From: Candidatus Heimdallarchaeota archaeon
Lineage (GTDB): Archaea; Asgardarchaeota; Heimdallarchaeia; Hodarchaeales; Hodarchaeaceae
Assembly (NCBI GenBank): GCA_019057635.1
Contig: DXJL01000037.1
Span: forward strand, 1 to 18,419
Length of the DNA stretch: 18,419 nucleotides
Direction of reading: 5' to 3'
Shown here one piece after another: positions 1,464 through 18,419 of the stretch (within the stretch, counting starts at the first letter, position 1; every line of letters begins with the position of its first letter). A program made the position numbers and the translations under genes. The notes beneath the pieces are model-generated. The model was not told the origin of the DNA, made no database searches, and worked only from the letters and a program-made list of their open reading frames with translations.

Positions 1464-1566
1464 TTTGATACCCCATCAGTGAATGGTGTTTAATTTTGTG
1501 CGCAGGGACTTACTTTTCTTGAGAAGGATCAGTCAATAAAATGGTAGATTCGGGATTTATAATGAT

Positions 1567-2157
1567 TTATATTCGGTTAAAAGCTTTTGAAGATAAATCG
1601 GTTATCCCTCTCTCATCCTTCAAATCTCCTCTAATTAAGTTTGATTCTTGTACCTTTTCTTGATTCTCTTTTTCTCCCACCTTTTTCAAGAATCCAGGAA
1701 TTATACTCCATTTCCAGTATTTAAAGTAGTCATCGAGCCATAAAATATTATTTTTATTGTCTGGTAGAAACCCTAAGTGTCCACCACATTTTTCTGTACA
1801 ATCGGAGTTTCCAAATCGTACAACAATCTCGAAATCAACATTTTTTGCGAAAATAGTCAAGTTCTGGCATTCAGTGCTTTGTTCATTAATATTAACATAT
1901 GCCCGATGGAGTATAACTGAGCTATGAGTTGTAAGATAATCGATGTGCCAAAATTTTTTCTTATTCGAATTAAAATGTCGTTTAAGACGATTTTTCAAAG
2001 AGGTAGCTGTACTTCCTTTTGCCGATCCAAAATACAAATAGACTCCAGGACTTATATTCCATTGCAAGCGTTTTACCTCTAATGAAATTTGTTGACAGAC
2101 TTCTAGTGCAAGAATATAGGTCCCTCGTAAATCTGAAAGGTGATCTATACTTTTCAA
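1567..2157 (-). CDS. DUF123 / GIY-YIG (Uri superfamily) nuclease
   Basis: GTYIL...PGVYLYFGSA...RLKRH...KKFWHIDYL...EC...FGNSDC...C.GHL match the DUF123 pattern. Confidence 0.85.
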   Translation of the reverse strand: MKSIDHLSDLRGTYILALEVCQQISLEVKRLQWNISPGVYLYFGSAKGSTATSLKNRLKRHFNSNKKKFWHIDYLTTHSSVILHRAYVNINEQSTECQNLTIFAKNVDFEIVVRFGNSDCTEKCGGHLGFLPDNKNNILWLDDYFKYWKWSIIPGFLKKVGEKENQEKVQESNLIRGDLKDERGITDLSSKAFNRI

Positions 2158-2246
2158 CCTTTATCTCCATCATTCAGGTTGTGACCTGTAAGTTTATAGC
2201 AATATCCTTTACGATGTTTAATCACTAAAATTTTGATGTTACTTTT

Positions 2247-3086
2247 ATGAGTGGTCGAGATAGTGTAAAAGCTTGGCAATTTCATCACCAAGAACAATTA
2301 AAATACCGTACTACTGGGTCTCCGACTTTTCGGGTGAAGTTTTATCATTATCCTTCTTATCGTCAAGAAGTAACACTTATCCAATCACCACCTGATTGCA
2401 AACTACAGCATAAAAAACTCAATTCATTCTTCATTTTTAATAGAAAAGTGCATTCACGTGGATCAATATCATTTGACAGAATAGTTCAAATAAAACCATT
2501 AAGCCAACGAATTTCTCTGCAAGATAATTGGGGGGAGATTTCTGAAATATCTTTGGAAGAAAGACAAAAGTACACCGAAAGCTCGCAATATTGGCCAGTC
2601 CAGAGTTCATTAATGGATGAGATTGTCAATAATAAATGGTTTTTAACAGAAAATATGAAGAATTGGGTTAAAAAGGCAAGTTTGTGTGTATTAGATACAA
2701 TAAAAGTCCGTGAAAATCAAGAGGAACGGCTCGGAGCACAACGAGCCTTAATCCATGGAATTGGAGATTGTGATGAATTTACAGATTTGTTTATCACTCT
2801 TGCCAGATTAAGAGGCATTCCTTCACGCCGATTAACAGGCTTTTATGTGACTGAGCATGGTAAGTCTGTAGAAGCTCATGCTTGGGCTGAAATATATTCT
2901 CCCACTCTATTTTGGATTCCTGTAGATTTAGCTTTGAATAACATTGGATTTCATAAAGAAAATTATGTTATACTGAAAATAGAAGAGTTTAATCCATCTC
3001 TTCCTGACTATCAAGTTAGAACAAGACATACGAGCCACGTGCAGCATGAGTGGATTCGTTTGCCCCCACAAGTAACTTCTATTTAA
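2247..3086 (+). CDS. Transglutaminase-like (Cys-His-Asp) domain protein
   Basis: GDCDEFTDLFITLARLRGIPSRRLTG, HAWAEIY and WIPVD motifs give an intact triad. No signal peptide seen. Confidence 0.88.
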   Translation: MSGRDSVKAWQFHHQEQLKYRTTGSPTFRVKFYHYPSYRQEVTLIQSPPDCKLQHKKLNSFFIFNRKVHSRGSISFDRIVQIKPLSQRISLQDNWGEISEISLEERQKYTESSQYWPVQSSLMDEIVNNKWFLTENMKNWVKKASLCVLDTIKVRENQEERLGAQRALIHGIGDCDEFTDLFITLARLRGIPSRRLTGFYVTEHGKSVEAHAWAEIYSPTLFWIPVDLALNNIGFHKENYVILKIEEFNPSLPDYQVRTRHTSHVQHEWIRLPPQVTSI

Positions 3087-3247
3087 GACAAAGAATCAAA
3101 TTACCTTATTAACATCGTGTCCTGTCAAGGAATGAGATTAACAATAGTTTGAATATGCTCATTTGAGTGGATTTTTCAAAGAGGTGGGCCCAATCTATAT
3201 ATCAAAATCAAACTAAGATCATTCAGAGAATTCAGAAGGCAAAATAA

Positions 3248-4318
3248 ATGAAGATTAGCATAGGAACAATTCCTGACAATGAGTTAAAGGAAAAATATGA
3301 ATCTGAGAAAACTTTGGAATTCGGAAAATATTTTACTGATCGTATGTTTAAAACTGACTTTAGTAATGGAAAGTGGGAGAATCCAAGAATTACTAAATAC
3401 GGTCCTCTTGCTTTAGAACCTTCTGCCATAGCTCTTCAGTACGGACAAACAATTTTTGAAGGTCAAAAAGCCTATCGGACAAAAGATGGAAAATTGAACC
3501 TCTTTAGGCCAGCCCTTAATATTAAACGCTTCAATAATTCAGCTAAACGAATGGCCATGCCAGAAATTGCTCCAGATATATATTTTGATGCCCTTAAAAC
3601 ACTTCTGGATTTAGAAAGAGATTGGGCACCAAAGAATGTTGGCTCTGCTCTTTATATCCGCCCCACCATGATAGGAACACAAGGAAGATTAGGAGTGGTT
3701 CCCTCCAATGCATATTTATTTTATATAATCCTTTCACCAGTCGGCCCGTACTTTCCAGAAGGATTTAAACCAATAAAAATCTGGGTAAGTGAACAATATA
3801 TCCGTGCAGCACCAGGTGGAACAGGATTTGCTAAAACTGGAGGAAATTATGCAGCGAGTTTGCTTATTGGACAAGAAGCGTTAGAGAAAGGTTACAGTCA
3901 AGTCTTGTGGCTAGATGCTATTCATAAGAAATATGTTGAAGAAGTTGGAGCAATGAATATCTTTTTCGTTTATAATGATACATTGTACACTGCTCCATTA
4001 GATAGTGGAACGATTCTACCTGGTTTGACTCGTGCAAGTGTTATTCAGATGGCAAAAGATTTCGGTTATTCCATCAAAGAAGAAGCTCTCTCAATGGATG
4101 AAATTGTAGACGGGATAAAGAATGGATCATTACAAGAATGCTTTGGGGCTGGAACAGCTGCAAGTATTGCCCCAGTAGGTTGCCTCCGTTATCAAGGTAA
4201 GGAGCATATTATTAATGACTTTCAAATTGGGGATATTACTCAGAAAATCTATGATCAATTAATTGGTATTCAATATAGTACAATTGAGGATCCATATGAG
4301 TGGATTGTTTCTGTTTGA
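3248..4318 (+). CDS. ilvE: Branched-chain amino acid aminotransferase (PLP fold IV)
   Basis: FGKYFTDRMF, LQYGQTIFEGQKAYR, LYIRP, AKTGGNYAAS (PLP lysine), EEVGAMNIFF, ILPGLTR, GAGTAA. Confidence 0.96.
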   Translation: MKISIGTIPDNELKEKYESEKTLEFGKYFTDRMFKTDFSNGKWENPRITKYGPLALEPSAIALQYGQTIFEGQKAYRTKDGKLNLFRPALNIKRFNNSAKRMAMPEIAPDIYFDALKTLLDLERDWAPKNVGSALYIRPTMIGTQGRLGVVPSNAYLFYIILSPVGPYFPEGFKPIKIWVSEQYIRAAPGGTGFAKTGGNYAASLLIGQEALEKGYSQVLWLDAIHKKYVEEVGAMNIFFVYNDTLYTAPLDSGTILPGLTRASVIQMAKDFGYSIKEEALSMDEIVDGIKNGSLQECFGAGTAASIAPVGCLRYQGKEHIINDFQIGDITQKIYDQLIGIQYSTIEDPYEWIVSV

Positions 4319-4488
4319 ATATATTGGGACGAACTTTAGGTATTCCTCTTCATAAAAACTTCATTTTGTCATTATCCCTAATAAAACTATGAATTGGCAA
4401 ATGTTGATCCATCATTGATCTAAGGCCCCATTTAAATAAATGAATTTGATGGCAAATTCTATATCCTTCCCGTGTACAGAGAGAGGAG

Positions 4489-4899
4489 CTATTTTTCCAG
4501 TTGGTTGAGTAGCTCATTACATAGCTTATCTGCTTTCTTAATCCATGAGTTTGTACGAGGAGCATGAGTAAATTTGACTGAAGAGAAGTATTTGATTTGT
4601 GTTATCACTTCACCGTACAGGGTTCTAAGATGAGGGCTATTGACATTATATTCCCCTTTTAGTTGCTTAATAACAAGTTCACTGTCGGAGAATAAGACAA
4701 TATTTTCCTTCGTGTATCCTTTTGCGACTTCCAAAGCCTTGATAATCGCTTGGTACTCTGCTTGGTTGTTTGTCTGATTTCCAAGGAAAAAATTACGTTT
4801 GTGAAGTATTTTTTCATTATGTACAAAGAGAAAGGCTGCCGCTGCAGGACCTGGATTCCCTCGAGCTGCTCCATCAGTATATATTGAAAAATCTTGCAT
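4489..4899 (-). CDS. rnhA: Ribonuclease HI (archaeal/actinobacterial RNase HI-like type)
   Basis: YTDGAARGNPGPA, TNNQAEY, SDSELVIKQLKGEY and ADKL carry the D-E-D-D acidic residues. Confidence 0.93.
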   Translation of the reverse strand: MQDFSIYTDGAARGNPGPAAAAFLFVHNEKILHKRNFFLGNQTNNQAEYQAIIKALEVAKGYTKENIVLFSDSELVIKQLKGEYNVNSPHLRTLYGEVITQIKYFSSVKFTHAPRTNSWIKKADKLCNELLNQLEK

Positions 4900-4901
4900 T
4901 G

Positions 4902-6284
4902 CTAATGTCCATAATTTAAATGATCTCTTTTTAGAAATTTTCCTTCATTGCTTTCACCGACAAATTCTCCGTCCTCACATAAAATTTTTCCCCTTAGAAT
5001 TGTATTAACGGGCCAAGCTGTGACCTTAAAATTAGTATATGAGTTCCAATCTATGTTATAATGTAGAATGTCTGGTGTGATAGTTTTTCTGACCGAAGGA
5101 TCAAAAATTACAAGATCAGCATCAGTACCAGTCTGTAATGATCCCTTTTGGGGATATAGGCCAAAAAGCTTGGCAGGATTTGTGGAGAGTAATTGCACAA
5201 GTCCAGGATAACTGATTTTTTTCGAATTAACAAGGAAATCATGAATGAGGGGAAGAGAAGTTTCGATACCCGGAATACCATTGGTTACTTGATGAAAAGG
5301 TAATTTACCACTTCCTTTCCTTTCTCGAGAGAATTCACAATGATCAGTGATTATAGTATCTATAATACCTGACTGGACCTGATTAATCAGTGCTTGTTGA
5401 TCTTTAGTATGCCTGAGAGGAGGAGACATGAGATTTAAGTATCCGTCGGGTGTAGTATATGCCTTTTCATTAAGTAGTAAATAATGAGGACAAGTTTCAC
5501 CCGTTACTCGAAGATTATTTTGCTTTGCCTGAGCTAGAAGGTCACCCCCTTCTTTGGTAGATATGTGTGCAATGTGCAGGTGAACCCCTGTTCGTCGTGC
5601 AAAAAGTATCACTCTTTGTATGGCTTCTTCTTCAGCCAGATGAGGACGGGAATGAGCATGGTATATCGGATCTTCTTTGTTATCTCGAATCAATTGTTCA
5701 CGATACGATTTAACCATAGAATTATTTTCACAATGGCCTATAACAAAGCCTCGATTTTTTCTGACTATTTTAAAGAACTGTACAAGCTCTGTATCAGTTA
5801 GATCAAGGTTCCTCCAATCATAAGTAGTGAAAAATTTAAAGCTCGTAACACCCCGTTTAATTAATTCAGGAATCTCATCAAGATATTCCAAATCTGTTTT
5901 AGAAACATGAAGACTATAATCAATAGCTACCTGACCATCTGCTGATTTCTTTCGGTCTAAGAATCCTTTAAGAGGTGACTCTCCCCTTGTTTGATCTGCG
6001 AAATCAATAATTGTTGTCACTCCCCCAAAGGCTGCAGCCTGAGTTCCTGAATTGAATGTATCGGTGGAGATGATTTTTCCGAGGTCTTGGAGTTGGAAAT
6101 GCACGTGTGTATCTACAATGCCTGGAAAAACTAATTTATTAGCAGCATCAATCACTTTCTCAGCCGAAACACTTTTATTACCTTGATAAATAGTAGAAAT
6201 CTTTTCTTCTGTAATTCCAAGGTTGGCATAATACATTCCATGACTATCTACGAGTGTTCCGTTCTTAATCAAGAGATCAAGCAT
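4902..6284 (-). CDS. hydA: Dihydropyrimidinase / D-hydantoinase (cyclic amidohydrolase)
   Basis: PGIVDTHVHF, AAAFGGVTTIIDF, SFKFF (carbamylated Lys), GHCEN, HIAHIS, GETCPHYL, MSPPLR, TDHC, NGIPGIET, NPAKLFGLYPQKG. Confidence 0.9.
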   Translation of the reverse strand: MLDLLIKNGTLVDSHGMYYANLGITEEKISTIYQGNKSVSAEKVIDAANKLVFPGIVDTHVHFQLQDLGKIISTDTFNSGTQAAAFGGVTTIIDFADQTRGESPLKGFLDRKKSADGQVAIDYSLHVSKTDLEYLDEIPELIKRGVTSFKFFTTYDWRNLDLTDTELVQFFKIVRKNRGFVIGHCENNSMVKSYREQLIRDNKEDPIYHAHSRPHLAEEEAIQRVILFARRTGVHLHIAHISTKEGGDLLAQAKQNNLRVTGETCPHYLLLNEKAYTTPDGYLNLMSPPLRHTKDQQALINQVQSGIIDTIITDHCEFSRERKGSGKLPFHQVTNGIPGIETSLPLIHDFLVNSKKISYPGLVQLLSTNPAKLFGLYPQKGSLQTGTDADLVIFDPSVRKTITPDILHYNIDWNSYTNFKVTAWPVNTILRGKILCEDGEFVGESNEGKFLKRDHLNYGH

Positions 6285-6482
6285 ATTAACTTCAACGCTT
6301 ACACCACATCCCTGATATCCCTATTAGATTTTTCTATTACTTTTAGTAAAAATTTCATTCTAACTCTCTTCATAATATTGATTACTAGCCTCTATCTTTT
6401 TCAATGTAAACTCAGAGGTAAAATTTGGAGTAGGATACTCTCACAAAGATCTAGCTAACCGTGAGAAGAAGTTGATCGATAG

Positions 6483-7961
6483 ATGAAGAGCATATTGGTA
6501 CGCACAAGATTGATGGTTCCCCTTTCAGACGCTTTAGGAAGAGAATCTCGAATTGAGGATGGATACATATTAACAGAGGGGAATCTGATTAAAGAAGTCG
6601 GAAAATTTAAACCAGATTCAATAGATGAGATCATAAGTAACTCTAACACTGATTTAATTGTAATAGGTGCCACCGATGGACAAATTACAAGCAGTAATGA
6701 TGTTCCCCAGATAAATGGAGTAGCCTTACCTGGATTTGTGAAAGCACATGGGCATGATCATGAATCTCCCCTCATAGGTATAGCAAAAGATGTTCCATTA
6801 ACTACATGGCTCGATGAAGCAGTAAATCACTTCACAGGATTTCTTCATGAAGAAGAAGAAGCATTAACTAAAAAGTTTGGACAGTCCCCATATTACCTTA
6901 CCTACTTAAAGGCACGTATAGATGATCTCCAACACGGGATCACGACTGCTTTGGTTCATCATTGTAATTTCAATAAGTATCATGTACCAGAACTGGTGGA
7001 GGCGAACCGAGATGCAAAAACTAAGATTACCATTGCAGTGGGATCACAAGATAGACATTATGACCCACGAATCCTTGATAAGCCTGCAAAAGTGGCAATT
7101 GAAAGAATGGATACACTCTTCGAGAAATTTACAAATGAACCCAATGTCCGAATAATTCCTGGTCCTGATCAATTCTTCTCAAACGGTCCAGAACTGCTCA
7201 AGCATTTAAAGATCTGGGCCAATAACCATCAAACGATGATTCACATTCATTCCAGTGAAGAATTTGCAACAACTCAATGGTTTACAAAAGAATATGGTTT
7301 AACACCTATCGAATATGCTCAATCAATTGGGTTTTTAGATGAAAATACATTTGTAGGACACCAAGTTCATAATTCCGAAAACGATTTGCAGATACTCGCA
7401 GAAACAAATACTGCAGTAGTTCATAACCCCTTAGCAAATACAATACTAGGTTCGGGAATGCCGCCATTGATAGAGTTTAAAAGTCGAAACATTCCTTTTG
7501 CTATATCCACTGATGGATCAGGGAGTGCAGATAACCAAAATATTATCAATGCCGCCCGTTTAGCAGCACAATATCAGAAAGCTTTTCATAAAAATGCAAC
7601 TTTGATGACAGCTCAAGATGTCTTAGAACGAATAACTATAATTCCCTCCCAGATTTTGAACTATAATACTGGCTCTTTGACTCCTGGAAAAAGTGCCGAT
7701 ATTATTGTAGTGGATCTATCTGTTCCCAACCTCACTCCTACTAGGAGTGATAACGTCGTGGAAAACTTAATTTGGGCTGCAAATGGAAATGAGATTAGCT
7801 ATGTCATTTCAAACGGTGAAGAAGTAGTAAATAATTATAAATTCGTGTATATTGATTTGAACACCGTGCTATCTCAGATCCAAGAACTATCTGAACTTTT
7901 TTATGCTTATAAAAAGCAAAAAACGGCTAGAAAAGCAACAGGTATAAGGGAAAGCGAATAA
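6483..7961 (+). CDS. Metal-dependent amidohydrolase, deaminase type (SsnA / MTA-SAH / guanine deaminase-like)
   Basis: PGFVKAHGH (HxH), HIHSSEE (HxxE), HQVH, HNPLAN..LGSG, STDGSGS, GSLTPGKSADIIVVD. Confidence 0.85.
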   Translation: MKSILVRTRLMVPLSDALGRESRIEDGYILTEGNLIKEVGKFKPDSIDEIISNSNTDLIVIGATDGQITSSNDVPQINGVALPGFVKAHGHDHESPLIGIAKDVPLTTWLDEAVNHFTGFLHEEEEALTKKFGQSPYYLTYLKARIDDLQHGITTALVHHCNFNKYHVPELVEANRDAKTKITIAVGSQDRHYDPRILDKPAKVAIERMDTLFEKFTNEPNVRIIPGPDQFFSNGPELLKHLKIWANNHQTMIHIHSSEEFATTQWFTKEYGLTPIEYAQSIGFLDENTFVGHQVHNSENDLQILAETNTAVVHNPLANTILGSGMPPLIEFKSRNIPFAISTDGSGSADNQNIINAARLAAQYQKAFHKNATLMTAQDVLERITIIPSQILNYNTGSLTPGKSADIIVVDLSVPNLTPTRSDNVVENLIWAANGNEISYVISNGEEVVNNYKFVYIDLNTVLSQIQELSELFYAYKKQKTARKATGIRESE

Positions 7962-8033
7962 TTATACTTTTTACACTTTTCATAAGAGTTAGCTTGGTTC
8001 CATAGGAATGAGTGGTTTAGTGACTGGAACTTC

Positions 8034-8080
8034 TATGAACAAATATGAAAGTATATATGAACATGTGAACTTTGTTCATA
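8034..8080. repeat. 10-bp perfect inverted repeat enclosing TGAAC-type direct repeats
   Basis: TATGAACAAA (8034-8043) and TTTGTTCATA (8071-8080), with TATGAAA, TATGAAC and TGTGAAC between them. Confidence 0.5.
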
Positions 8081-8696
8081 TGGTAAGATAATACCTAATT
8101 TGTACTAGATATGGTTATTCCGCATTTCTTGAAAGTAGATATGATTATTACATATAAAGTAATAAGAATTTTTGTGAATTATGCGATAATGGGTTTCAGA
8201 AATTATTTTCTTGTAATTTATAGCAAATTGCATTACTAGTCTCTTGTATAAGGCATGAGTTTGTTTAAGAATTAAGATTCTTCAATGATGGTAACTACTA
8301 CAATAATTAATTCAGTAATTCCCATTCTAAATTTAATATGATAATAAATTTGAGTAGATTTTCAATAGTTCAGCATGTCTCAAGCACGCATATTCCAGCT
8401 AGGTGATTTTATTCTTATCCTCAGACAGCTCTGCAGATTCTTATTCCTGAATCTCCAATAGTTAATCAGAGATTTGTACAAGTTTATTACTATAATTTTT
8501 GACGTTGCCGTTTCACCTGATTTCCAGAAAAATTCTTGACGACAATCAATAAAACTCAATGTTTCACAGAATGATAGTTTGAATAAAGGACTTCCATTAT
8601 TAGCGAGTAAATGAAATATATTTCAATTTATGTTCTTAGTTACGAAATGGATACGAATAAGTATATATTTTTGCCCAGAACCAATCTATATTCGTA

Positions 8697-8728
8697 TTCA
8701 AAATCCCAAAAATTTCTTGGATTTTGAA
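8697..8728. promoter_or_regulatory. Inverted repeat, candidate operator upstream of the membrane protein gene
   Basis: TTCAAAATCC-N12-GGATTTTGAA, ending 25 bp before the ATG at 8754. Confidence 0.45.
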
Positions 8729-8753
8729 AGAATAAAAGTAAACTGTGATAAAA

Positions 8754-9131
8754 ATGGCTGATTTAAAATTTATAGGAAGAATATTAGGTGTCATTGGCGG
8801 TATTCTCATGGTCGTCCTTGGCATTATAGTGATCCTTAATAATGTATTAGATGAAGCAGTTTATGCTCTTGATCAATTTGGATTTGATCTAGGTATGAAC
8901 TTCGTCGGTGATGCCGTAGGTGGAGATAATGCCTGGGTATTTGCTGCTGCACTCATGATTATTTTAGGTGTCGTCGCTATTTACGGATACCAACAACTCG
9001 CTGGTAGAGGTAAAGGCGATCTCTTAGTTTGGGGAATTATTTATATCGTGGTAGGTATTCTAGGCGCTGGCCTTGGTGGACTCTTAGTCCTAATTGGTGG
9101 AATTGTTCTCCTTCTTGACAATTTTCTCTAA
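8754..9131 (+). CDS. Small Gly-rich integral membrane protein (~4 TM), unknown function
   Basis: Hydrophobic segments rich in GxxxG (GVIGGILMVVLG, GILGAGLGGLLVLIGG). ATG at 8754 preferred over GTG at 8745 because the GTGAT there resembles an RBS. Confidence 0.8.
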   Translation: MADLKFIGRILGVIGGILMVVLGIIVILNNVLDEAVYALDQFGFDLGMNFVGDAVGGDNAWVFAAALMIILGVVAIYGYQQLAGRGKGDLLVWGIIYIVVGILGAGLGGLLVLIGGIVLLLDNFL

Positions 9132-9139
9132 ATTCACCA

Positions 9140-9156
9140 TTTTTTTCTTTTTTTTT
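9140..9156 (+). terminator. Oligo-T terminator
   Basis: TTTTTTTCTTTTTTTTT starting 8 bp after the stop codon. Confidence 0.6.
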
Positions 9157-9312
9157 ATCATTATTACTTCTTTTCCTGAAATACTCTAATTCTCTGAGTT
9201 TTTCCGAGAATTAAATCCCTCATTATGATACTGGTTCCTAAAAGCTAGTCACTTTAAGGGAACCTATTCTTGTTTTAAGTGCTTATTAGCAACGTAAAAA
9301 CTATAATAAACG

Positions 9313-10158
9313 ATGATAGATATGGATATTACAAACTTATTGAAAACTGGAATGTTATTTGGAGTATTACTGGGATTATTCTACGTGATTTCACTAGTCT
9401 TCAATGTCTCACCAATGGTATTCCTTATATTTTCGGCATTATTTGTCTTCTTATCTTACTGGTTTTCAGACTCAGTGGTTCTTAAGATGACAAGAGCCAC
9501 AGTTGTTGATGAACACCAGGCACCAGCGTTATACTCACGCGTTGCACGATTAGCTCAAAGTGCTGGTATCCCCCAACCTCGTATTGCTATTGTTAAGAAT
9601 CCGACTCCTAACGCATTTGCAACTGGCCGTTCCCCTGGAAAAGCTGTTATTGCTGTTCATACAGGCCTTTTGGAGATGATGTCGTCAGATGAATTGGATG
9701 GTGTTCTGGCTCATGAGCTAAGCCACGTTAAACATTGGGATACTCTGATTCAAACAATTGCTGCCATGTTTGCAACTGCCATCATGTTTGTCTCTCGTAT
9801 GGCAATTTGGTTTAGTTTTTCTGACAGGGAGAATAATGTAAATCCTATAGCTTTGTTGATCACTTGGATAGTTGCCCCTATGGCTGCCATCATGATACAA
9901 ATGGCAATTTCGCGAAGTCGAGAATTCGCTGCGGACCATGAAGCAGCAAAAATTACTGGCAATCCCGTTGGTTTAGCAAATGCCCTGAGGAAATTAGATT
10001 CCTATTCAAAATACTCCCCTAAGCGTGGACAACCTAGCCCAAGTTTAAGCCATCTTTATATTGCTAATCCTCTCTCTTCAAAGGGCTTTGCTGGGATGTT
10101 TTCGACTCATCCCCCTGTAGCAGATAGAATTTCACGACTTGAACAGATGAGCTATTAA
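9313..10158 (+). CDS. htpX: Zinc metalloprotease HtpX (M48 family)
   Basis: N-terminal TM segments, PNAFATGR, HELSH (HExxH), ISRSREFAAD, FSTHPP. The start could be the ATG at 9322. Confidence 0.96.
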   Translation: MIDMDITNLLKTGMLFGVLLGLFYVISLVFNVSPMVFLIFSALFVFLSYWFSDSVVLKMTRATVVDEHQAPALYSRVARLAQSAGIPQPRIAIVKNPTPNAFATGRSPGKAVIAVHTGLLEMMSSDELDGVLAHELSHVKHWDTLIQTIAAMFATAIMFVSRMAIWFSFSDRENNVNPIALLITWIVAPMAAIMIQMAISRSREFAADHEAAKITGNPVGLANALRKLDSYSKYSPKRGQPSPSLSHLYIANPLSSKGFAGMFSTHPPVADRISRLEQMSY

Positions 10159-10185
10159 TATTTCGAGTTAATTACTTAGGAGGGG

Positions 10186-10200
10186 TTTTTTCTTTTCTTT
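10186..10200 (+). terminator. Oligo-T terminator candidate
   Basis: TTTTTTCTTTTCTTT downstream of htpX. Confidence 0.45.
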
Positions 10201-10333
10201 ACTATAAACCTCTTTTCAGCGTAATTTTCTTATTTGGTTTAAATATCGACTTCTTTCGTGAAATGTTAATATTTCATATTTAATTTCCCCCCGAACGATT
10301 ATTCCCTGATCTTTTAACCAAATGTGATCATTA

Positions 10334-12442
10334 ATGGATATCATATATTCAAAACAAGAGATAGCTCATCTTCCTTATCGAAATAGTCGCTTAAGTCTTG
10401 AAAAACGTGTAGAAGATTTATTAAAACGACTTACTCTTGATGAAAAGATTCGATTACTCTCTGGTCACAGAATATTCAATACGGCACCAATTAGACGCTT
10501 GGGATTAGGCCGATTACGGATGACCGATGGTCCTTTTGGAGTAGCAATGCATTCCAGTGGACTCTCAAAAAACACTCGTTTTCCTAGTACTAAGGCGTTA
10601 GCAGCTAGTTGGAATCGTGCTTTAGCAAAAAGATTCGGAGTCGCAATTGCTGAGGAAGTGCGTGCTAATGGGAGGCACATGCTTCTTGCTCCTGGAATTA
10701 ATATAGATCGAACTCCATTAAACGGTCGAACATTCGAATATTTTGGAGAAGATCCATATCTAGTTAAGGAACTAGCAATTCCATTTGTTAGAGGAGTACA
10801 GAATCAGCAGGTTGGGGCCTGTATTAAGCATTTTGTTGCTAATAATCAGGAAATATTACGTAAAACGATAAGTGTCGAGATAGATGAACGGACACTCCAT
10901 GAAATATACTTAAGAGCATTTGAGGAAGTAGTTAAAGAAGCAGAACCGTTTTCTGTGATGACCTGCTACAATAGAATCAATGGGGTTTATGGCAGTGACA
11001 ATTCTTATCTCCTCAGGGAAACTCTCTTTGATAAATGGGGTTTTGAAGGCTTTATTGTATCTGATTGGGGGGCTACGGATCATAAAGAATTGACCACAAA
11101 ATCCTGTTTGAAAGCTGGATTATCGTTGGAAATGCCGTCAGGTAAAAAGTATAAACAAAATTTACTTGAAAAAGCTCTGTCAAGTGGTGAAATTAAAGAA
11201 GATTGGATTAACGATGCTGTTAGTCGACTACTCCTAGTCGCAGGGAAAACGGGTGTCCTTGATGACCCAGAAACCTTACCGAAAGGAGTAAAAAATTCTA
11301 TTGAACATCAATCACTGTCCCGAGAAATTGCAGAGGAAGGAATGGTTCTTTTGAAGAATGAAGGAATTCTACCATTAAAGCTGGATTCTATAAATTCTAT
11401 TGCAGTTTTGGGTCCAAATATGAATAAAAAGTTCGGGAAAATACTCTATGGAGGAAGCTCGGCCGTTAAAGCTCCTTACGAAATTACTCCAATTGAAGGG
11501 ATTAAAGAATTTTGCTCTAAGGATGTGAAATTAGTTCATGATCCTTCGGAAGCAGACGTGGTTCTCCTCTTTATGGGATTGAATCATAATAAAGACGGTG
11601 GTCGGAGAGATTTTGTTTCTGGCTTCTTTAAAAAACGAAAAAATGCGTTGATATATGGTCATGATTCCGAGGGTGCTGATCGAGCTCAGCTGGAGTTACC
11701 GCAATCTCAAGTTGACCTTATTAGGGATACAGTTAAGAAAAATCCAAATACAGTTGTTATCTTGATAAATGGAAGCCCTCTAGGGATGAAAGAATGGCTT
11801 AATGATGTTCCTGCGGTCTTAGAGGCATGGTATGGCGGAATGGAATCAGGAAATGCTATTGCAAATGTTCTATTTGGAGAAATTAACCCTTCTGGGAAAC
11901 TACCCATTACTTTTCCAGAACAATTAATAGATTCACCAGCTCACAAATCTCCGAAAACTTATCCTGGAGATTTAGATGATTTAAAGGTCTATTATGAAGA
12001 AGGAATTTATGTAGGCTATCGCCATTTCGAGAAATTTGAAATAGCTCCTCTTTTTCCATTTGGCTTTGGGTTGAGTTATACCACTTTCTCGTATGCCAAC
12101 TTATCACTCAATAAAAATAAGTTACAAAGCTTAGATGATACTTTTAATCTCTATGTAGATATTACAAATACTGGAGAGCGGTTTGGAGCAGAAATCGTTC
12201 AAGTATATGCCAATAGTTTAGAATCGAGTGTGGATCGTCCTCTCAAAGAACTAGTTGGTTTTGCAAAGGTAGAATTAAATTCCAAGGAAAAGAAAACAGT
12301 GCAAATTAGCATTAGAGGTAAAGATTTAGCTTATTATGATGTCATGACACATGATTGGAAACTCGATCCAGGAACAATTCGAATTTTGGTTGGAAGTTCA
12401 TCACAAGATATTCATTTAGAAACTGAGATTCATTTTTCTTGA
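10334..12442 (+). CDS. Glycoside hydrolase family 3 beta-glucosidase-like enzyme with C-terminal Fn3-like domain, cytoplasmic
   Basis: MTDGPFGV, LLAPGINIDR..GRTFEYFGEDP, CIKHF, VSDW (nucleophile Asp), SEGADR, NPSGKLPITFP, YEEGIYVGYR, FPFGFGLSYT. No signal peptide. Confidence 0.95.
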   Translation: MDIIYSKQEIAHLPYRNSRLSLEKRVEDLLKRLTLDEKIRLLSGHRIFNTAPIRRLGLGRLRMTDGPFGVAMHSSGLSKNTRFPSTKALAASWNRALAKRFGVAIAEEVRANGRHMLLAPGINIDRTPLNGRTFEYFGEDPYLVKELAIPFVRGVQNQQVGACIKHFVANNQEILRKTISVEIDERTLHEIYLRAFEEVVKEAEPFSVMTCYNRINGVYGSDNSYLLRETLFDKWGFEGFIVSDWGATDHKELTTKSCLKAGLSLEMPSGKKYKQNLLEKALSSGEIKEDWINDAVSRLLLVAGKTGVLDDPETLPKGVKNSIEHQSLSREIAEEGMVLLKNEGILPLKLDSINSIAVLGPNMNKKFGKILYGGSSAVKAPYEITPIEGIKEFCSKDVKLVHDPSEADVVLLFMGLNHNKDGGRRDFVSGFFKKRKNALIYGHDSEGADRAQLELPQSQVDLIRDTVKKNPNTVVILINGSPLGMKEWLNDVPAVLEAWYGGMESGNAIANVLFGEINPSGKLPITFPEQLIDSPAHKSPKTYPGDLDDLKVYYEEGIYVGYRHFEKFEIAPLFPFGFGLSYTTFSYANLSLNKNKLQSLDDTFNLYVDITNTGERFGAEIVQVYANSLESSVDRPLKELVGFAKVELNSKEKKTVQISIRGKDLAYYDVMTHDWKLDPGTIRILVGSSSQDIHLETEIHFS

Positions 12443-13602
12443 TACTCTATAAATTCAAATTGAATATTTCTTTTCTCTAACTCATCAATTAATGCACTTG
12501 TTGGAACATGCTCTTCACATTTGAGTACTCCATGTATTATAATTTTTCCATGTGCGATGAATTGACCAATAATGCTTGCTGGAAATGCAGTAGTTCGTGC
12601 CATGGCTGAAAATTCTGCTTTTGTATCATAGAGATCAATTAATTGATACACATGCGTTCTTACTTGGTTATTGATCTTTCCTAATATTGTTATTCGTGCT
12701 AATACTGCATCAGGTTGATTTTGGGGAAGATTTTTGACTAAGTAGTATTCTATGACTTCTCGTGGAGAAACTCCCGGATTTAGAGGAAAATCTTCACTTG
12801 ATAATAAACCAAATTCTTTTAGAAAGGAAAAAAATTGAGCATGGCCTGGGAACCTTATTGTTTTATAGGTTAATTGTTTAATACTTCCTTCAAAGATATC
12901 GGGAAGTGAAGATATACCGCCAGAGGTATTAAATGCTTCTAATTCTCCCCATGGTTTAGGAAAGCTTATCTTTTCTATATCGGTAAGAGAGGGGATATTT
13001 TTTAGTGTACCATCCTCGATTACTTTCGCATCCTCAAGATACTCATTTGTTAATCCTCGAATTGCAAAGACCTGTTGATAATTAAGAATCGTTTTTGGTT
13101 CCTGAGGTAATCCTCCCACACGTAGATGACATTCATCTAGTGAATCGAACTTTCTCATTCCATGAGCTGCCACAATATTGACCATCCCTGGTGCGAGTCC
13201 TAAATCAGGAATAATTGTAACTTCTGCTTTTTTTGCTTCTTTGTCCATAGTTTGCTGTTTTTGAACAACTGAAGGATTTCCTCCGAGATCAACGAAGCTA
13301 CAACTAGCCTCCATGCAAATTTTAGTCAAACCAAAATTGAACTTGTAATCAACCGCACCAAAAACTACTGCAATTTCATTTTCTATTAGTACTTGTTTCA
13401 GTTTTTGTTGATTTTTTTCATTTAAATCCAAATTTTCCACATGAAACCGTTTTTCAAAGTTCCTAAGCTTGATTTTTTGTTTTTCTCTCTGTTTAGGTTC
13501 TTTATCGAATCCATAAACCTGTGATGTAGGATCATACGTTAATAAATCATAACACAAAGCTGATCCCATAAGCCCAAGACCTAAAACTGCGTAATTTGGC
13601 AT
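12430..13602 (-). CDS. Saccharopine dehydrogenase-family oxidoreductase (lysine 6-dehydrogenase-like)
   Basis: GLGLMG Rossmann motif, FVDLGG, DLGLAPG, VGGLPQ, LEAFNTSGG, YKTIRFPGH, AMARTTAFP. Confidence 0.88.
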   Translation of the reverse strand: MPNYAVLGLGLMGSALCYDLLTYDPTSQVYGFDKEPKQREKQKIKLRNFEKRFHVENLDLNEKNQQKLKQVLIENEIAVVFGAVDYKFNFGLTKICMEASCSFVDLGGNPSVVQKQQTMDKEAKKAEVTIIPDLGLAPGMVNIVAAHGMRKFDSLDECHLRVGGLPQEPKTILNYQQVFAIRGLTNEYLEDAKVIEDGTLKNIPSLTDIEKISFPKPWGELEAFNTSGGISSLPDIFEGSIKQLTYKTIRFPGHAQFFSFLKEFGLLSSEDFPLNPGVSPREVIEYYLVKNLPQNQPDAVLARITILGKINNQVRTHVYQLIDLYDTKAEFSAMARTTAFPASIIGQFIAHGKIIIHGVLKCEEHVPTSALIDELEKRNIQFEFIEYQEK

Positions 13603-13721
13603 GTGTAAGTCAAAGAAGATTTAGTATTTTAGGATGCTACCTGTCATAAAAACCTAGTCTATGCACTATGTGAAGTAGAATCATGAAAAAAAGGATTAAA
13701 GGAAGTTTTCATGCTTATAGA

Positions 13722-14052
13722 ATGAGAAAAAAGGGCGAGATTTTTTTCTGCCATTGACACACAGATCTGGATAGATCTAGGTGACTGTATTATCTTTAAA
13801 CATGATAATTTTTTATTCAGATTTTGTAAAAGAAATAAAATTAGTAAAGACGGGTTATTAAAATTTTTTTACAAGACTAAACAAGATGTCGATGACTTAT
13901 ATCAAAGACTACAACAATGGACGGTATCTAAACCCGCTGAGAATGAAAAATATAATATTTACAACTTCTTTGCGACTGATCCCGAAGGGCGGGATTTGGA
14001 ATTTCAGACCTTTCTTCACGAAATTGACTTTAGCTGGGAAAACTATAGATAA
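13722..14052 (+). pseudogene. VOC / glyoxalase-bleomycin-resistance family pseudogene with disrupted 5' end
   Basis: Frame 1 is open from 13726 to 14052 with no usable start: ...IWIDLGDCIIFKHDNFLFRFC...FFYKTKQDVDDLYQRL...PAENEKYNIYNFFATDPEGRDLEFQTF. The ATG at 13722 (MRKKGEIFFCH*) is in another frame. Confidence 0.75.
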
Positions 14053-14098
14053 TAATTATTATATCGATCTTAGTTGTTGAAAAGGAGACTTTCTGAAG

Positions 14099-14743
14099 AT
14101 GGATGCAGAAGAAATCTATAAAGAAATGGCTGATTCCATTGTGAACCTTGATCAAGAAAAGGCACTGAAATTGGCAAATCAAGCATTGAATGAAGAAATG
14201 GATCTTTTGAAAGTGATCGAGAAAGGATTTGGGGAAGGCATTCGTAAAGTAGGGGATCTTTGGGACGATGGAGAATTCTTTCTTCCAGAATTAATGTCTG
14301 GAGCACAGATCATGGAAAAAGCGGTGGATGTTCTTACGCCAAAGCTGCAATCATCTGGATCAGAACGTCAATCATCAGGTAAAGTTCTCTTAGCTACAAT
14401 TGAAGGTGATATTCACTCCATTGGAAAAACTATTGTCGCCACTATGCTTCGAGCTAATGGATTTCAAGTTATTGACTTAGGCACCGATGTGAAAGCAGAA
14501 AAAATCGTTAATGTGGCAATCAATGCGAACGTAGATATCATTGGAGTTTCAACTCTGTTAACCACGACAATGTTAAATCAGAAAAAAGTAATCGAGATCT
14601 TAGAACAGAAAAATATTAGAAATAACTTCAAAGTGATATTTGGGGGTGCCCCTGTGACACAGGGTTGGGTAGACGAATGCCATGCTGATGGTTACGCAGA
14701 GAATGCAGTTGAATCTGTAAAATTAGCAAAAAGTTTGATGTAA
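14099..14743 (+). CDS. Corrinoid (B12-binding) protein, MttC/MtbC-like
   Basis: Cap domain (G..KVGDLWDDGEFFLPEL), EGDIHSIGK (DxHxxG), GVSTLLTTTM, FGGAPV. AAGGAG upstream. Confidence 0.95.
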   Translation: MDAEEIYKEMADSIVNLDQEKALKLANQALNEEMDLLKVIEKGFGEGIRKVGDLWDDGEFFLPELMSGAQIMEKAVDVLTPKLQSSGSERQSSGKVLLATIEGDIHSIGKTIVATMLRANGFQVIDLGTDVKAEKIVNVAINANVDIIGVSTLLTTTMLNQKKVIEILEQKNIRNNFKVIFGGAPVTQGWVDECHADGYAENAVESVKLAKSLM

Positions 14744-14778
14744 TCTGTGGTTATATGTTAGAATAAAGTGAGTTACTG

Positions 14779-15663
14779 ATGTCTTTCACACAATGGCTAG
14801 GTAATGAATCAAAGATTATTTTATTCGATGGAGCAATGGGTACACAATTAATGCAGCATAATTTAGATCCTGGTAAAATACCTGATTTGTTAAATATTGA
14901 AAACCCAGAAATTGTCAAGAATGTGTTAGCTAGTTATTATGATTCTGGTGCAGATATGGTTCAAACGTGTACTTTTAGTTCAAATTTAGTAAATTTAGAG
15001 AGACAGCATTTAAGTAATAGGTTACAGAAGATTAATCTTGAGGCACTAAGAAATATTAAAGATATTAAACCCTCAAGTGGAAAATTAATTGTGGGAGATA
15101 TAGGTCCATCTGGTGAGTTTAGGCCACCAGTTGGAGAAGCATCAGGGGATCAATGGAAAAATGGATTTCAACAACAAGCTGAAGTATTGGAGGCAGGCGT
15201 TGATTTGTGGCATATTGAGACGATGTCAGATCTTCAGGAAATGTCCGCCGCAATTCACGCAATAAAAGAAGTATCTCAGAAACCTATCATAGCCTCGATG
15301 ACGTACCGTAAAACAAAAACAAGGGGTTTTTTCACAATCATGGGAGATTCTTTAGAAACCTGTGTGAATACTCTGGAAAAGGAGAATGTTGACGTAATCG
15401 GTGCAAATTGCACCTTGGGCTCGGATCAAATGATAGAGCTTGCCAAAGAATTGGTGCAAATGACTGATAAACCAGTCTCTGTCAAACCCAATGCTGGACA
15501 ACCACGGTTAGAGGGAGGAAATACTGTTTATAATCAATCACCTGATGAGTTTGTGAATGATATAGAACAGATGATTAATCTTGGAGTGAAAATTGTGGGA
15601 GGTTGTTGTGGTACCACTCCAATTCATATTCAAAAGATGAGAATGTTAATTGACAATCGCTAG
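14779..15663 (+). CDS. Homocysteine S-methyltransferase family protein (stand-alone MetH Hcy-binding domain)
   Basis: FDGAMGTQL, GDIGPSG, IETMSD, GANC and GGCCGT (three Zn-ligand Cys), KPNAGQP. Confidence 0.94.
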   Translation: MSFTQWLGNESKIILFDGAMGTQLMQHNLDPGKIPDLLNIENPEIVKNVLASYYDSGADMVQTCTFSSNLVNLERQHLSNRLQKINLEALRNIKDIKPSSGKLIVGDIGPSGEFRPPVGEASGDQWKNGFQQQAEVLEAGVDLWHIETMSDLQEMSAAIHAIKEVSQKPIIASMTYRKTKTRGFFTIMGDSLETCVNTLEKENVDVIGANCTLGSDQMIELAKELVQMTDKPVSVKPNAGQPRLEGGNTVYNQSPDEFVNDIEQMINLGVKIVGGCCGTTPIHIQKMRMLIDNR

Positions 15664-15674
15664 GACGTGTATAA

Positions 15675-17099
15675 ATGGGAATATTAAGACCTAAAGTAGC
15701 ATTACTTAATGATGAATACAAGAAGAAAATTTTTGAGGAAGCCAAGCATATTCTTGAATCGCTAGGTGTTTTATTTGAAAATACTGATGCAGAAGCTCTT
15801 CTCAAGGAACAGGGAGTGCCTAATGATAACCATCGGTATTATATTCCCTCTGATTTAGTAGATAAGTGTCTTACCTCCCCACCTCATGAAATTACAATGT
15901 ATGATCGTGAAGGTAACGTTCATCTATCCCTCAAAGATGATAACATTCATTTTGACCCTGGATCTGCAGCTATATTCATTCTTGATGAAAACAGTGGACA
16001 AATAAGAGAACCTCTCCATCAAGATTTCATTCGTTTTACCAAAATTGTTGATCAATTATCAAATATTGATGCTCAGAGTACATCACTAGTATATTCTGAT
16101 GTCCCTAAAACTGCCCAAGATTGGCATCGTCTATATACGACTCTTAAATACGGTCACAAGCCCATTGTTACCGGCACGTTTCGCAAGGAGAGTTTTTCAA
16201 TAATGAATGAATTATTATTGACGTGTCGCACATCTGAAAAAGATTTAGCAGCTAAACCTCTTGCAATTTTTGATGCTTGTCCCTCACCACCACTTTCCTG
16301 GTCAGATCTAACAACACAGTCTGTTATTGACGCCGCTGAGAGAATGATACCCTCTGAATTTATCAGTATGCCAATGTCAGGAGCCAATGCACCAATAACA
16401 TTGATTGGTTCAATTACCCAACATTGTGCTGAATCACTAGCTGGAGTTGTAATTTCTCAATTAGCTAAAAAAGGAGCTCCAATTATTTGGGGAGGTTCCC
16501 CTGCGATAATGGACATGAAACATGGTACTACACCAATGGGAGCAATTGAAACAATGATGATTGACATTGGGGATGCTGAAATGGGTAAATATCTAAATTT
16601 GCCAACGCATGCCTATATGAGTCTGAGTGATGCCAAGATTCCTGATGCACAAGCTGGTTTAGAGGCTGGGATGGGTGCATTGTTAGCTGGATTAACCGGT
16701 ATTAACATGATTTCTGGTCCTGGAATGCTTGATTTTGAATCCTGTCAATCAATTGAAAAATTATTAATTGATAATGAGATCGCAGGTATGGTTAAACGAT
16801 TTCTTAAAGGTATACATGATTATGGGTCTCCCTTTGCTGAAGAAATACTAAAAGATTATGATAAAACCAATGAATTGTTGTCTCATCCATCAACCCTTCA
16901 ACTTTTCCGTAAAGAGCTATATTTACCTAGTCCTATCATTGCAAGGATGACTCGCGATGAATGGAAAAAAGCAGGTTCCCGTTCCTCCAGACAGAGAGCC
17001 AAAGAAGAAATTGAAGGACTTTTAGCTAAAGGCCCACCAAAAGCTCTGGATAGTTTAAAATCAACTGAATTGGATAAAATCTCCTCTAAATATTTATGA
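15675..17099 (+). CDS. mttB: Trimethylamine methyltransferase (MttB) superfamily, non-pyrrolysine member
   Basis: SPPL, MSGANAPITLIGSITQHCAESLAG, GAPIIWGG, MDMKHG..MGAIE, SDAKIPDAQAGLE, GPGMLD, EKLLIDNEI. No internal TAG. Confidence 0.93.
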   Translation: MGILRPKVALLNDEYKKKIFEEAKHILESLGVLFENTDAEALLKEQGVPNDNHRYYIPSDLVDKCLTSPPHEITMYDREGNVHLSLKDDNIHFDPGSAAIFILDENSGQIREPLHQDFIRFTKIVDQLSNIDAQSTSLVYSDVPKTAQDWHRLYTTLKYGHKPIVTGTFRKESFSIMNELLLTCRTSEKDLAAKPLAIFDACPSPPLSWSDLTTQSVIDAAERMIPSEFISMPMSGANAPITLIGSITQHCAESLAGVVISQLAKKGAPIIWGGSPAIMDMKHGTTPMGAIETMMIDIGDAEMGKYLNLPTHAYMSLSDAKIPDAQAGLEAGMGALLAGLTGINMISGPGMLDFESCQSIEKLLIDNEIAGMVKRFLKGIHDYGSPFAEEILKDYDKTNELLSHPSTLQLFRKELYLPSPIIARMTRDEWKKAGSRSSRQRAKEEIEGLLAKGPPKALDSLKSTELDKISSKYL

Positions 17100-17117
17100 T
17101 CATGATAAAAGAATTTT

Positions 17118-17786
17118 TTGGTTCCAATTTTGATTCATAGAAGAAATTATGAGGAAATCACGGTTCGGGAAAAAGATATAGTCTACTATCTGCAACGTAG
17201 CAACAAATCTTCTCATAACTCCTCTCAAAAAGTTCTTACACCAGATTTAAAGATGCAATTGGTTCGAATGGAAAGCATAGCAGTCACTTTATATGAGTCG
17301 AAAGGTATTTTCAAGATTTTTAAGGCTTCAAAACTCCCCTTTAGAGAATGTTTTGCTGAAGCTGAAAGAGTGGCATTGGCTATTGTAACAATTGGTAAAT
17401 CTCTACCTTTGGAAGCGAATAATCGAATGAAATCAGGAGAATATGTTGATGGCGTTATCTTAGATGCATTTGGATCTGCTGGTGTAGAACAAGTGGCTGA
17501 TCAGGTGAATCGTGAAATTGTTGATATCGTCAAAAGCCAAAATTTTGAGTATTCACAACGGTTTAGTCCAGGTTATTGTCAGTGGAATGTAAAGGATCAA
17601 GAATTAATTTTCCAAAACCTCCCTGGTGAAGATATTGGAGTATCTCTGACTGAAGGATATATGATGAAACCCATTAAATCAGTATCATTTGCTATTAACA
17701 TTGGGAAAAATATAAAGAAATCAAGATGGGAGACACGATGCAAGTCATGTGAGGAACGAGGGCAGTGTACTTATCGTATGCAATGA
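17118..17786 (+). CDS. Stand-alone B12-dependent methionine synthase activation (AdoMet-binding) domain protein
   Basis: IVTIG, LDAFGSAGVEQ, RFSPGY, IGVSLTEGYMMKPIKSVS and a C-terminal CxxCx5C. The TTG start is uncertain. Confidence 0.88.
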   Translation: MVPILIHRRNYEEITVREKDIVYYLQRSNKSSHNSSQKVLTPDLKMQLVRMESIAVTLYESKGIFKIFKASKLPFRECFAEAERVALAIVTIGKSLPLEANNRMKSGEYVDGVILDAFGSAGVEQVADQVNREIVDIVKSQNFEYSQRFSPGYCQWNVKDQELIFQNLPGEDIGVSLTEGYMMKPIKSVSFAINIGKNIKKSRWETRCKSCEERGQCTYRMQ

Positions 17787-17956
17787 GATATCCCAATTCA
17801 ATTAATAATTAGTTTATTACAAATCAATTCATTCTAGAATATTTAGTTTAACTTATCATACTAGAAAAATGAAATGCAACGATTCATCATTTAAGCAAAA
17901 ATAATAATCCGTAATTACTGTTCTAGTTTTATTTGGTTATCTCTTAGGTGAAAAAT

Positions 17957-18419
17957 GTGGACACTATTGATTCGTTGGAGACAATGTGTGATGTTTTAAT
18001 TATTGGATCGGGTATTGCTGGATTATCATTGGCATTAAAAGTGACATCCATTGGTAAAGTTATAGTCTTGACAAAAACGAATCTTATAGAATGCGCTACG
18101 ATCTTAGCACAAGCAGGTATTAGTGCAGCAATTTCTACAGATGATTCATTTGAAACCCATACTCAAGACACAGTAAATGTCGGAGATGGCCTATGTCATC
18201 TAGATGTTGTAAAAAAAATTGTATCAGCAGCTCCTGAACGTATTGAAGAACTTGTCAAATGGGGAGTTCAATTCTCCAAAAAGGACAATGATCACTATGA
18301 TCTAGGATTAGAGGGAGGGCATTCGCATCGTCAAATAGTCCATTCTAAGGACAGAACGGGGGCAGATATTCAAAATGCGCGTATCTCCCGAGTCTTAGAA
18401 GATCCTCAAATAACTGTAC
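17957..18419 (+). CDS. nadB: L-aspartate oxidase, 5' part (3'-partial)
   Basis: DVLIIGSGIAGLSLAL (FAD binding), AQAGISA, DDSFETHTQDT..GDGLC, LVKWGVQF, LEGGHSHRQIVHSKDRTG. AGGTGA RBS at 17946-17951 precedes GTG 17957. Not in the ORF track. Confidence 0.9.
   Translation, partial: MDTIDSLETMCDVLIIGSGIAGLSLALKVTSIGKVIVLTKTNLIECATILAQAGISAAISTDDSFETHTQDTVNVGDGLCHLDVVKKIVSAAPERIEELVKWGVQFSKKDNDHYDLGLEGGHSHRQIVHSKDRTGADIQNARISRVLEDPQITV

Follow-up and report, generated by a model that had tools for sequence, protein, structure and literature searches.

Gene content of the cassette

The DNA analyzed here, referred to as the window, is an 18,419-nucleotide stretch from a Candidatus Heimdallarchaeota archaeon (GenBank assembly GCA_019057635.1; contig DXJL01000037.1, positions 1 to 18,419 of the forward strand, C213 in our labels), and the system under study is a cassette of four genes that would probably allow this Asgard archaeon to make methionine through a cobamide and without a pterin module. 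Four open reading frames (ORFs) on the + strand (14099-14743, 14779-15663, 15675-17099 and 17118-17786), separated by intergenic gaps of 35, 11 and 18 bp, encode in this order a corrinoid protein, a homocysteine (Hcy) methyltransferase, an MttB homolog and an activation protein. An earlier interpretation made from the letters alone (the sequence-only reading) had described four co-oriented genes with these gaps and these module identities, and it is borne out by the ORFs, the Pfam matches and the motifs, and for gene 4 by profile and fold. It had also stated that the operon lacks pterin-binding, MtbA and RamA genes, and the Pfam scan of the window proteins agrees, as no pterin-binding, URO-D/MtbA or RamA gene was found in it. 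The genome is a 3.19-Mb metagenome-assembled genome in 214 contigs, with a completeness of 91.6% and a contamination of 3.2%, and all genome-wide negatives given below hold within this 91.6%-complete assembly.

About 500 bp without a listed ORF lie 5′ of gene 1. By eye, a candidate promoter with a ribosome-binding site for the operon can be placed at 14046..14098 (+ strand), where a TATA-like A/T-rich stretch (14046-14064) is followed by an AAGGAG (14082-14087) located 11 nt 5′ of the ATG. On the other side, gene 4 is followed by 161 A/T-rich bp and then by an L-aspartate oxidase gene. Just 5′ of the operon there is also a 108-codon open stretch (13726-14049, + strand) that ends in TAA, has no ATG, GTG or TTG start and no Pfam match, and is possibly a gene remnant. 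A glyoxalase-type C-terminal end was considered as its identity and set aside, being a resemblance by eye with no Pfam match.

Gene 1 (14099..14743, + strand, 214 aa) encodes a corrinoid (cobamide-binding) protein of the MttC/MtmC type. It matches the Pfam families B12-binding_2 (72.5 bits) and B12-binding (100 bits), its TIGR02370 score of 218.4 bits is over the cut-off of 215.3, and it carries the motif DIHSIG (DxHxxG, His-on) at residue 104. The best PDB match is MttC (7xcn_M) with 167 bits, compared with 109 bits for the B12 domain of MetH (1bmt). D104, H106, G109, S151, L153 and G182-G183 are invariant among 14 orthologs.

Gene 2 (14779..15663, + strand, 294 aa) encodes a stand-alone homocysteine S-methyltransferase corresponding to the Hcy module of MetH, and it is the sole S-methyl_trans gene of the genome (Pfam, 221.8 bits). 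Its best PDB match is the N-terminal half of Thermotoga maritima MetH (1q7m, 187 bits, residues 11-294), followed at a distance by HMT (5dml, 57.5 bits) and BHMT (1umy, 47.3 bits); the NCBIfam matches PRK07534 (179 bits) and PRK09485 (109 bits) are both under cut-off. Cys211, Cys276 and Cys277 are in register with the GINC and GGCCG motifs of 1q7m. These three cysteines are putative Zn ligands, going by the role of their counterparts in MetH.

Gene 3 (15675..17099, + strand, 474 aa) is the sole MTTB gene of the genome and encodes a pyrrolysine (Pyl)-free methyltransferase of the MttB superfamily, presumed to act as a methyl-donor:corrinoid methyltransferase. The Pfam MTTB (PF06253) score is 243.9 bits, and the PDB matches include MtgB (2qne/9yce, 181 bits) and MttB (7xcl, 167 bits). 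The match to TIGR02369, the Pyl-MttB equivalog model, reaches 342 bits and is under the cut-off of 525, and no NCBIfam model of a characterized quaternary-amine enzyme was matched. The frame is open with no in-frame stop, and a CTG codon (Leu317) stands at the X position of Pyl-MttB (7xcl).

Gene 4 (17118..17786, + strand, 222 aa, TTG start) is confirmed by family profile and predicted fold as a stand-alone MetH activation (AdoMet-binding, reductive remethylation) domain protein, AdoMet being S-adenosylmethionine. A phmmer comparison with the stand-alone T. maritima activation protein (1j6r) gave an E-value of 0.003. With a profile built from 25 homologs, the E-value for the same protein fell to 1.5e-8, and those for MetH chains were 0.011-0.065. 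The AlphaFold model (mean predicted local distance difference test, pLDDT, of 83.1; predicted TM-score, pTM, of 0.81; residues 207-222 below 50) has 1j6r as its top Foldseek match (E 6.1e-12, TMq 0.73, TMt 0.81), and there are 19 matches at E ≤ 0.001, every one of them a MetH activation domain. The motif RFSPGY (RxxxGY) at residue 148 is invariant in the 25-homolog alignment, and AdoMet binding is predicted.

Conservation and gene order in relatives

The public loci survey used one genome per species and yielded 443 loci encoding a relative, with gene order analyzed in the best 80. The order corrinoid-hcy-mttB on one strand is found in 73/80 of these loci; five others are cut by contig ends and two lack hcy. 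MttB identity to the window protein ranges from 63-97% across them, and their labels are Hodarchaeota, Promethearchaeota/Lokiarchaeota, Hermod-, Thor- and Odinarchaeota, with a Nanopelagicaceae bacterium (L122) as the sole exception. At the protein level, the best 120 MttB cluster representatives are 68-100% identical and Asgard-labeled wherever named. The nearest relatives in public records are labeled Candidatus Heimdallarchaeota archaeon B3_Heim and Candidatus Hodarchaeota/Hodarchaeales. DNA near-identical to 14000-17900 also occurs in marine-sediment and cold-seep metagenome contigs from three studies (shares of 0.91, 0.56 and 0.51), the first-ranked of which may represent the sample that the genome came from.

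Gene 4 is located within 6 kb in just 3/80 of the best public loci. It stands directly 3′ of mttB in the window's subclade (L013-L015, L051), and in 6/12 larger loci, from two sister families, it is located between hcy and mttB, one of these families having a 3-4 kb insertion. The hcy-gene 4-mttB order is an independent re-arrangement that retains the four genes together. The broadly conserved unit is thus the three-gene core of corrinoid protein, Hcy methyltransferase and MttB, and not the four genes. The self-contained four-gene operon of the sequence-only reading holds just for the window's subclade and, in another order, for the two sister families.

In four of six Loki-, Thor- and Hermod-type loci the triad adjoins a histidyl-tRNA synthetase gene, with RidA or 2-oxoacid:ferredoxin oxidoreductase genes. 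The context of the triad in these loci is housekeeping rather than catabolic.

Activation protein and RamA

To follow the activator across genomes, we used a panel of 41 relatives (the window's own genome and 40 others), with MttB orthologs called at E ≤ 1e-150, RamA scored as PF14574 and MetE as PF01717. MttB orthologs were found in 30/41 genomes. Of these 30, 15 carry gene 4 but not RamA, 11 carry RamA but not gene 4, four carry both, and no genome lacks both. In the 11 relatives that have no MttB ortholog, gene 4 is present in none and RamA in three. The window's subclade (G000, G002, G004, G018 and G020) is exactly the RamA-less part of the genus. Gene 4 and RamA thus appear as either/or among triad carriers, a pattern that supports an activator role for gene 4.

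A predicted complex of the corrinoid protein and the gene-4 protein scored 0.54, with the best of three controls at 0.00; the runs agreed on at least 87% of contacts, and partner pLDDT was at least 81. The mark applied to this score was reached by 58/80 solved complexes and 2/110 mismatched pairs, and the range at or below 0.60 holds 7/80 solved complexes plus both mismatches that passed. Because solved structures of MetH B12 and activation domains together exist (1k7y, 8ssd), the predictor may have passed this pair by having memorized them. The prediction weakly suggests that the two proteins pair.

Four cysteines of gene 4 (C154, C208, C211 and C217) are invariant in the 25 homologs. The last three sit in the C-terminal tail that AlphaFold cannot place (pLDDT < 50), and T. 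maritima TM0269 (1j6r) has a Gly at the position of Cys154. The gene-4 family has 7100 members at E ≤ 0.001, and among its best 150 cluster representatives a C-terminal CxxCx(3-8)C is found in 140/150, with an additional Cys after PGY in 58/150. These cysteines may bind a metal or an iron-sulfur cluster through which electrons enter. We know of no description of this motif.

In one genus-mate (L057; G006:C236:5000-12000), the gene-4 homolog has as neighbors a gene of the MtmB family (monomethylamine methyltransferase-like, 326 bits) and the gene of a second corrinoid protein. The activation protein may serve more than one corrinoid system.

The methyl donor

In Desulfitobacterium hafniense MtgB, glycine betaine is contacted by Y97 and F356 (cation-pi) and by R312 and H348 (carboxylate), and R312 is reported to be retained in MtcB, MtpB, MthB and MtyB (Picking et al., 2026; PMC13080624, available part of the text). 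Pairwise HMMER alignment to 9yce (chain index + 2 equals the published numbering) places Y97, R312, H348 and F356 opposite S97, H312, S347 and E355 of gene 3, so that 0/4 are conserved. The replacements are themselves fixed in the family, as S97, L317, S347 and E355 are invariant in 120/120 MttB representatives and H312 is found in 117/120. Since this S/H/S/E signature replaces all four betaine-binding residues, glycine betaine is improbable as the donor; it was ruled out as the likely substrate, and any other acidic betaine held in the manner of MtgB appears unlikely as well. Trimethylamine itself is not expected as a substrate without pyrrolysine. The sequence-only reading had proposed a methylated amine, a guess from family membership; the donor would most likely be a methylated onium compound. 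A reading of MttB in terms of mercury methylation (PMC12484752) was also looked at and dropped, because the available text concerns something other than this cassette.

In genus-mates without gene 4, a gene of the Ldh_2 (Malate/L-lactate dehydrogenase) family lies directly, or one gene, 3′ of mttB (L043:9377-10459, L042:6925-8010 and L045:10598-11689). These genes score about 400 bits in Pfam and have a sulfolactate-dehydrogenase-like NCBIfam match under cut-off. The Ldh_2 gene of these RamA-type genus-mates may hint at the substrate, or may simply happen to lie there; the window has no Ldh_2 gene.

Within mttB, Rfam gives a match to PYLIS_3, the pyrrolysine insertion sequence of mttB (16623-16722, + strand; 47 bits, gathering score 38), whose first codon is exactly that of Leu317, CUG here but UAG in the model. 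Its base pairing is poorly retained, with two non-standard pairs in one helix, and the native sequence has no folding advantage over shuffled versions (z +0.80). An RNA element was ruled out on these grounds, and we take the match to be an echo of coding homology. It could make automatic annotation wrongly call a Pyl gene here.

Proposed function and its alternatives

The module composition and the genome support the logic of the sequence-only reading, in which MttB takes the place of the folate module of MetH. The sole Pterin_bind protein of the genome is a dihydropteroate synthase (DHPS; TIGR01496, 204 bits, cut-off 162.6) encoded beside a CofE-like ligase, searches of the genome found no MtrH, RamA, second Met_synt_B12 or MTHFR, and neither S-methyl_trans nor MTTB was found outside the operon. 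We consider it likely that the four genes form a cobamide-dependent methyl-transfer chain that would make methionine without a pterin (folate or tetrahydromethanopterin, H4MPT) module. What the analysis shows directly is the identity of domains and folds, the presence of the catalytic motifs, the synteny and the phyletic patterns, and from these we infer the activity of the chain. The Pyl-free MttB homolog would bind the methyl donor and methylate the Co(I) of the MttC-like corrinoid protein. The MetH-type Zn-Cys3 methyltransferase would then use homocysteine as acceptor of this methyl group, yielding methionine and returning the cobalt to Co(I), and the homocysteine could come from the S-adenosylhomocysteine (SAH) hydrolase that is encoded elsewhere in the genome. 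When the cobalt is oxidized to Co(II), the gene-4 protein would repair it by AdoMet-dependent reductive methylation, like the C-terminal domain of MetH, and in this lineage it would stand in for the ATP-dependent activator RamA.

Several observations weigh against this chain. All four betaine-binding residues are replaced, including R312, reportedly retained in the other characterized quaternary-amine enzymes, which is H312 here. CobS, which would bear on the supply of cobamide, was not found in the genome. A distant MtaA-like URO-D protein is encoded on another contig, beside a peptidase gene and unlinked to the cassette, and scores 83 bits against cut-offs of at least 235. The Pfam Met_synt_B12 match of gene 4 (residues 146-190) reaches just 24.7 bits, with a cut-off of 25; in the domain check by hidden Markov models that had been proposed, B12-binding, S-methyl_trans and MTTB were recovered while this domain had to be rescued by profile and fold. 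Gene 4 is also rare beside the triad in public loci, as described above, and the relatives are kin, so the either/or counts stand for few independent events. No RNA run holding the stretch was found in a search of sequencing runs, and the literature searched gave no biochemical, genetic or expression evidence for the cassette in any organism.

The role of the cassette also depends on MetE. The closest relative (G002, 97% MttB identity) has a split MetE (a 224-aa Meth_synt_1 and a 423-aa Meth_synt_2 protein) beside an MTHFR-like gene (G002:C87:108500-111200, L055), so the main methionine synthase may be something other than the cassette. In the window's genome no PF01717 match was found and tblastn with the split MetE and MTHFR-like proteins of G002 also gave nothing, which does not count as absence: contig C136 matches the flank of the G002 split-MetE locus and ends ~4.3 kb short of the place of MetE, and absence of metE cannot be claimed. 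In the proposed check of the genome for other synthases, the result for pterin-binding proteins favors the chain, but the cassette cannot be called the sole methionine synthase here. In the panel, PF01717 is present in 11/30 triad carriers, mostly of the RamA type (9/11 RamA-only genomes versus 1/15 gene-4-only genomes). Eight of the 11 cassette-less relatives are also without PF01717, and methionine synthesis may thus be dispensable in the class.

The same genes could serve catabolism, with the methyl group stripped from an abundant quaternary amine for nitrogen, carbon or energy and homocysteine a mere sink from which it exits via methionine and AdoMet. According to the available portions of the papers concerned, all characterized non-Pyl members of the MttB superfamily are catabolic (PMC13080624), MttB-like genes of Asgard archaea have been interpreted as quaternary-amine methylotrophy (PMC11291895), and in Ruegeria a corrinoid protein is common to catabolism and methionine synthesis (PMC12478193). 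Against this, the Pfam scan of the window proteins shows no dedicated betaine/choline transporter, no amine-catabolism neighbor and no genes for further breakdown of the demethylated amine, the triad has a housekeeping setting in four of six Loki-, Thor- and Hermod-type loci, no THF (tetrahydrofolate) or H4MPT methyltransferase for C1 oxidation was found in the genome, and homocysteine supply would limit the flux. We regard catabolic demethylation as unlikely. A shared corrinoid protein, as in the MtgBCDE system, is a further alternative, which we rate as quite improbable: methyl-THF or methyl-H4MPT would feed it via a pterin-type module that lies elsewhere or is not recognized as such, and MttB would be an optional extra donor. 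The pterin module MtgD of R. pomeroyi is essential for methionine and unlinked to mtgE (PMC12478193, part of the text), the assembly is incomplete and in many contigs, and the sister family f4 has second Pterin_bind and second S-methyl_trans genes. Yet the genome has no Pterin_bind protein beyond DHPS and no MtrH, the genus-mates have one Pterin_bind match each (21/21, only G005 with a second), and mttB is fixed beside hcy in 73/80 loci.

It is very unlikely that the acceptor or the direction differs, that is, that the S-methyl_trans protein methylates another thiol or selenol, or that a sulfonium donor (S-methylmethionine or AdoMet-like) methylates the corrinoid protein. The S-methyl_trans family does include BHMT and the S-methylmethionine:homocysteine methyltransferases, in line with the two NCBIfam matches under cut-off, but gene 2 is far nearer to the MetH module, over its full length, than to HMT or BHMT, and it is linked to a MetH-type activation protein. 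The methionine-forming chain can also be extended to a bolder statement: in most Asgard archaea the triad would be the chief methionine synthase and would work independently of pterins, its donor class would be new to the MttB superfamily (going by the invariant S97/H312/S347/E355), and RamA-less lineages would use an AdoMet-dependent activation protein whose C154/C208/C211/C217 hold a metal or iron-sulfur center fed directly by ferredoxin. In this full form we hold it to be speculative and rather doubtful.

If the chain operates as proposed, many Asgard archaea, the closest prokaryotic kin of eukaryotes, make or regenerate methionine by a B12 route that bypasses both folate and methanopterin. 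Genome-based reconstructions of Asgard auxotrophies, B12 dependence and C1 metabolism would then change, as would the range of substrates known for the MttB superfamily and the annotation "trimethylamine methyltransferase", which is now taken as a sign of methylotrophy. The alternation between an AdoMet-type activator and RamA provides a clean natural experiment on corrinoid protein repair.

Other genes in the window

Elsewhere in the window, a stand-alone RNase H/RVT_3-type protein and a DUF123 protein are encoded at 4489-4899 and 1567-2157, respectively, both on the - strand. They are surrounded by amidohydrolase, aminotransferase and transglutaminase-like genes and are unrelated to the cassette.

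Comparison with known systems

The kind of cassette described here has been in print for bacteria since 2022. The available part of Williams et al. (2022, Environ Microbiol; PMC9324843) reports this four-gene cluster from Ca. Electryoneota and from "diverse bacteria" and proposes corrinoid-dependent methionine synthesis from an unknown donor. The likeness is at the family level, with the same four families clustered, a Pyl-free MttB and the same hypothesis. The bacterial order, in contrast, is hcy-corrinoid-activation-mttB in genomes that also have a full-length MetH, whereas the order in the Asgard archaeon here is corrinoid-hcy-mttB-activation. The novelty that the sequence-only reading had assumed is therefore lost for the cluster and for the hypothesis. 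Literature searches combining Asgard archaea with trimethylamine, MttB, homocysteine or corrinoid turned up no archaeal description of the cassette; in the Asgard papers searched, which read the MttB-like genes as quaternary-amine methylotrophy, the homocysteine gene is unmentioned (PMC11291895).

Separate MetH modules are known from two marine bacteria. In Ruegeria pomeroyi, a homocysteine module, a pterin module and an MttB-family enzyme share one corrinoid protein, which genetics proved to be necessary for methionine synthesis (Mausz et al., 2025; PMC12478193), and a split MetH has been described in Phaeobacter inhibens (Price et al., 2018, as cited in PMC12478193). As in these systems, the MetH modules in the window are separate proteins, and one corrinoid protein would serve both an MttB-family and an Hcy methyltransferase. 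According to the portion of PMC12478193 at hand, the pterin-binding MtgD of MtgBCDE is essential, the methyl group passes via tetrahydrofolate (H4F), and RamA and DUF1638 proteins carry out the repair; the genes lie dispersed, and MtgC resembles CmuA. Unlike MtgBCDE, the cassette has no pterin module that we could find, a MetH-type AdoMet activator and an MttC-like corrinoid protein.

T. maritima MetH and TM0269 (1q7m, 1j6r) share with the cassette the Hcy module (187 bits) and the activation fold (TM 0.73/0.81) with its RxxxGY motif. The cassette departs from MetH in having no pterin domain, a B12 module of the methylamine-corrinoid type, a C-terminal Cys motif and all of its modules in separate genes. 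With the MtgB/MtgC/MtgA and RamA system of D. hafniense it shares a Pyl-free TIM barrel of the MttB superfamily encoded beside its cognate corrinoid protein, and a Leu at the Pyl position. There, however, the acceptor protein is a THF/CoM (coenzyme M) methyltransferase and the activator is the ATP-dependent RamA, whereas here the acceptor protein is a homocysteine methyltransferase and no RamA was found in the genome. The MtgB of Methanolobus vulcani (PMC6855144) is said to offer a further glycine betaine system for comparison.

Two other routes likewise give methionine from homocysteine without folate. BHMT takes the methyl group directly from betaine, with no cobamide and no MttB-type donor module. 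Core-MetE takes it from methylcobalamin (PMC7005905, part of the text) and is an enzyme of the MetE fold, again with no MttB-type donor module. Specific to the present analysis are the either/or pattern with RamA, a pocket that is conserved yet differs from the betaine-binding one, the cysteine motif of gene 4 and the caveat concerning MetE.

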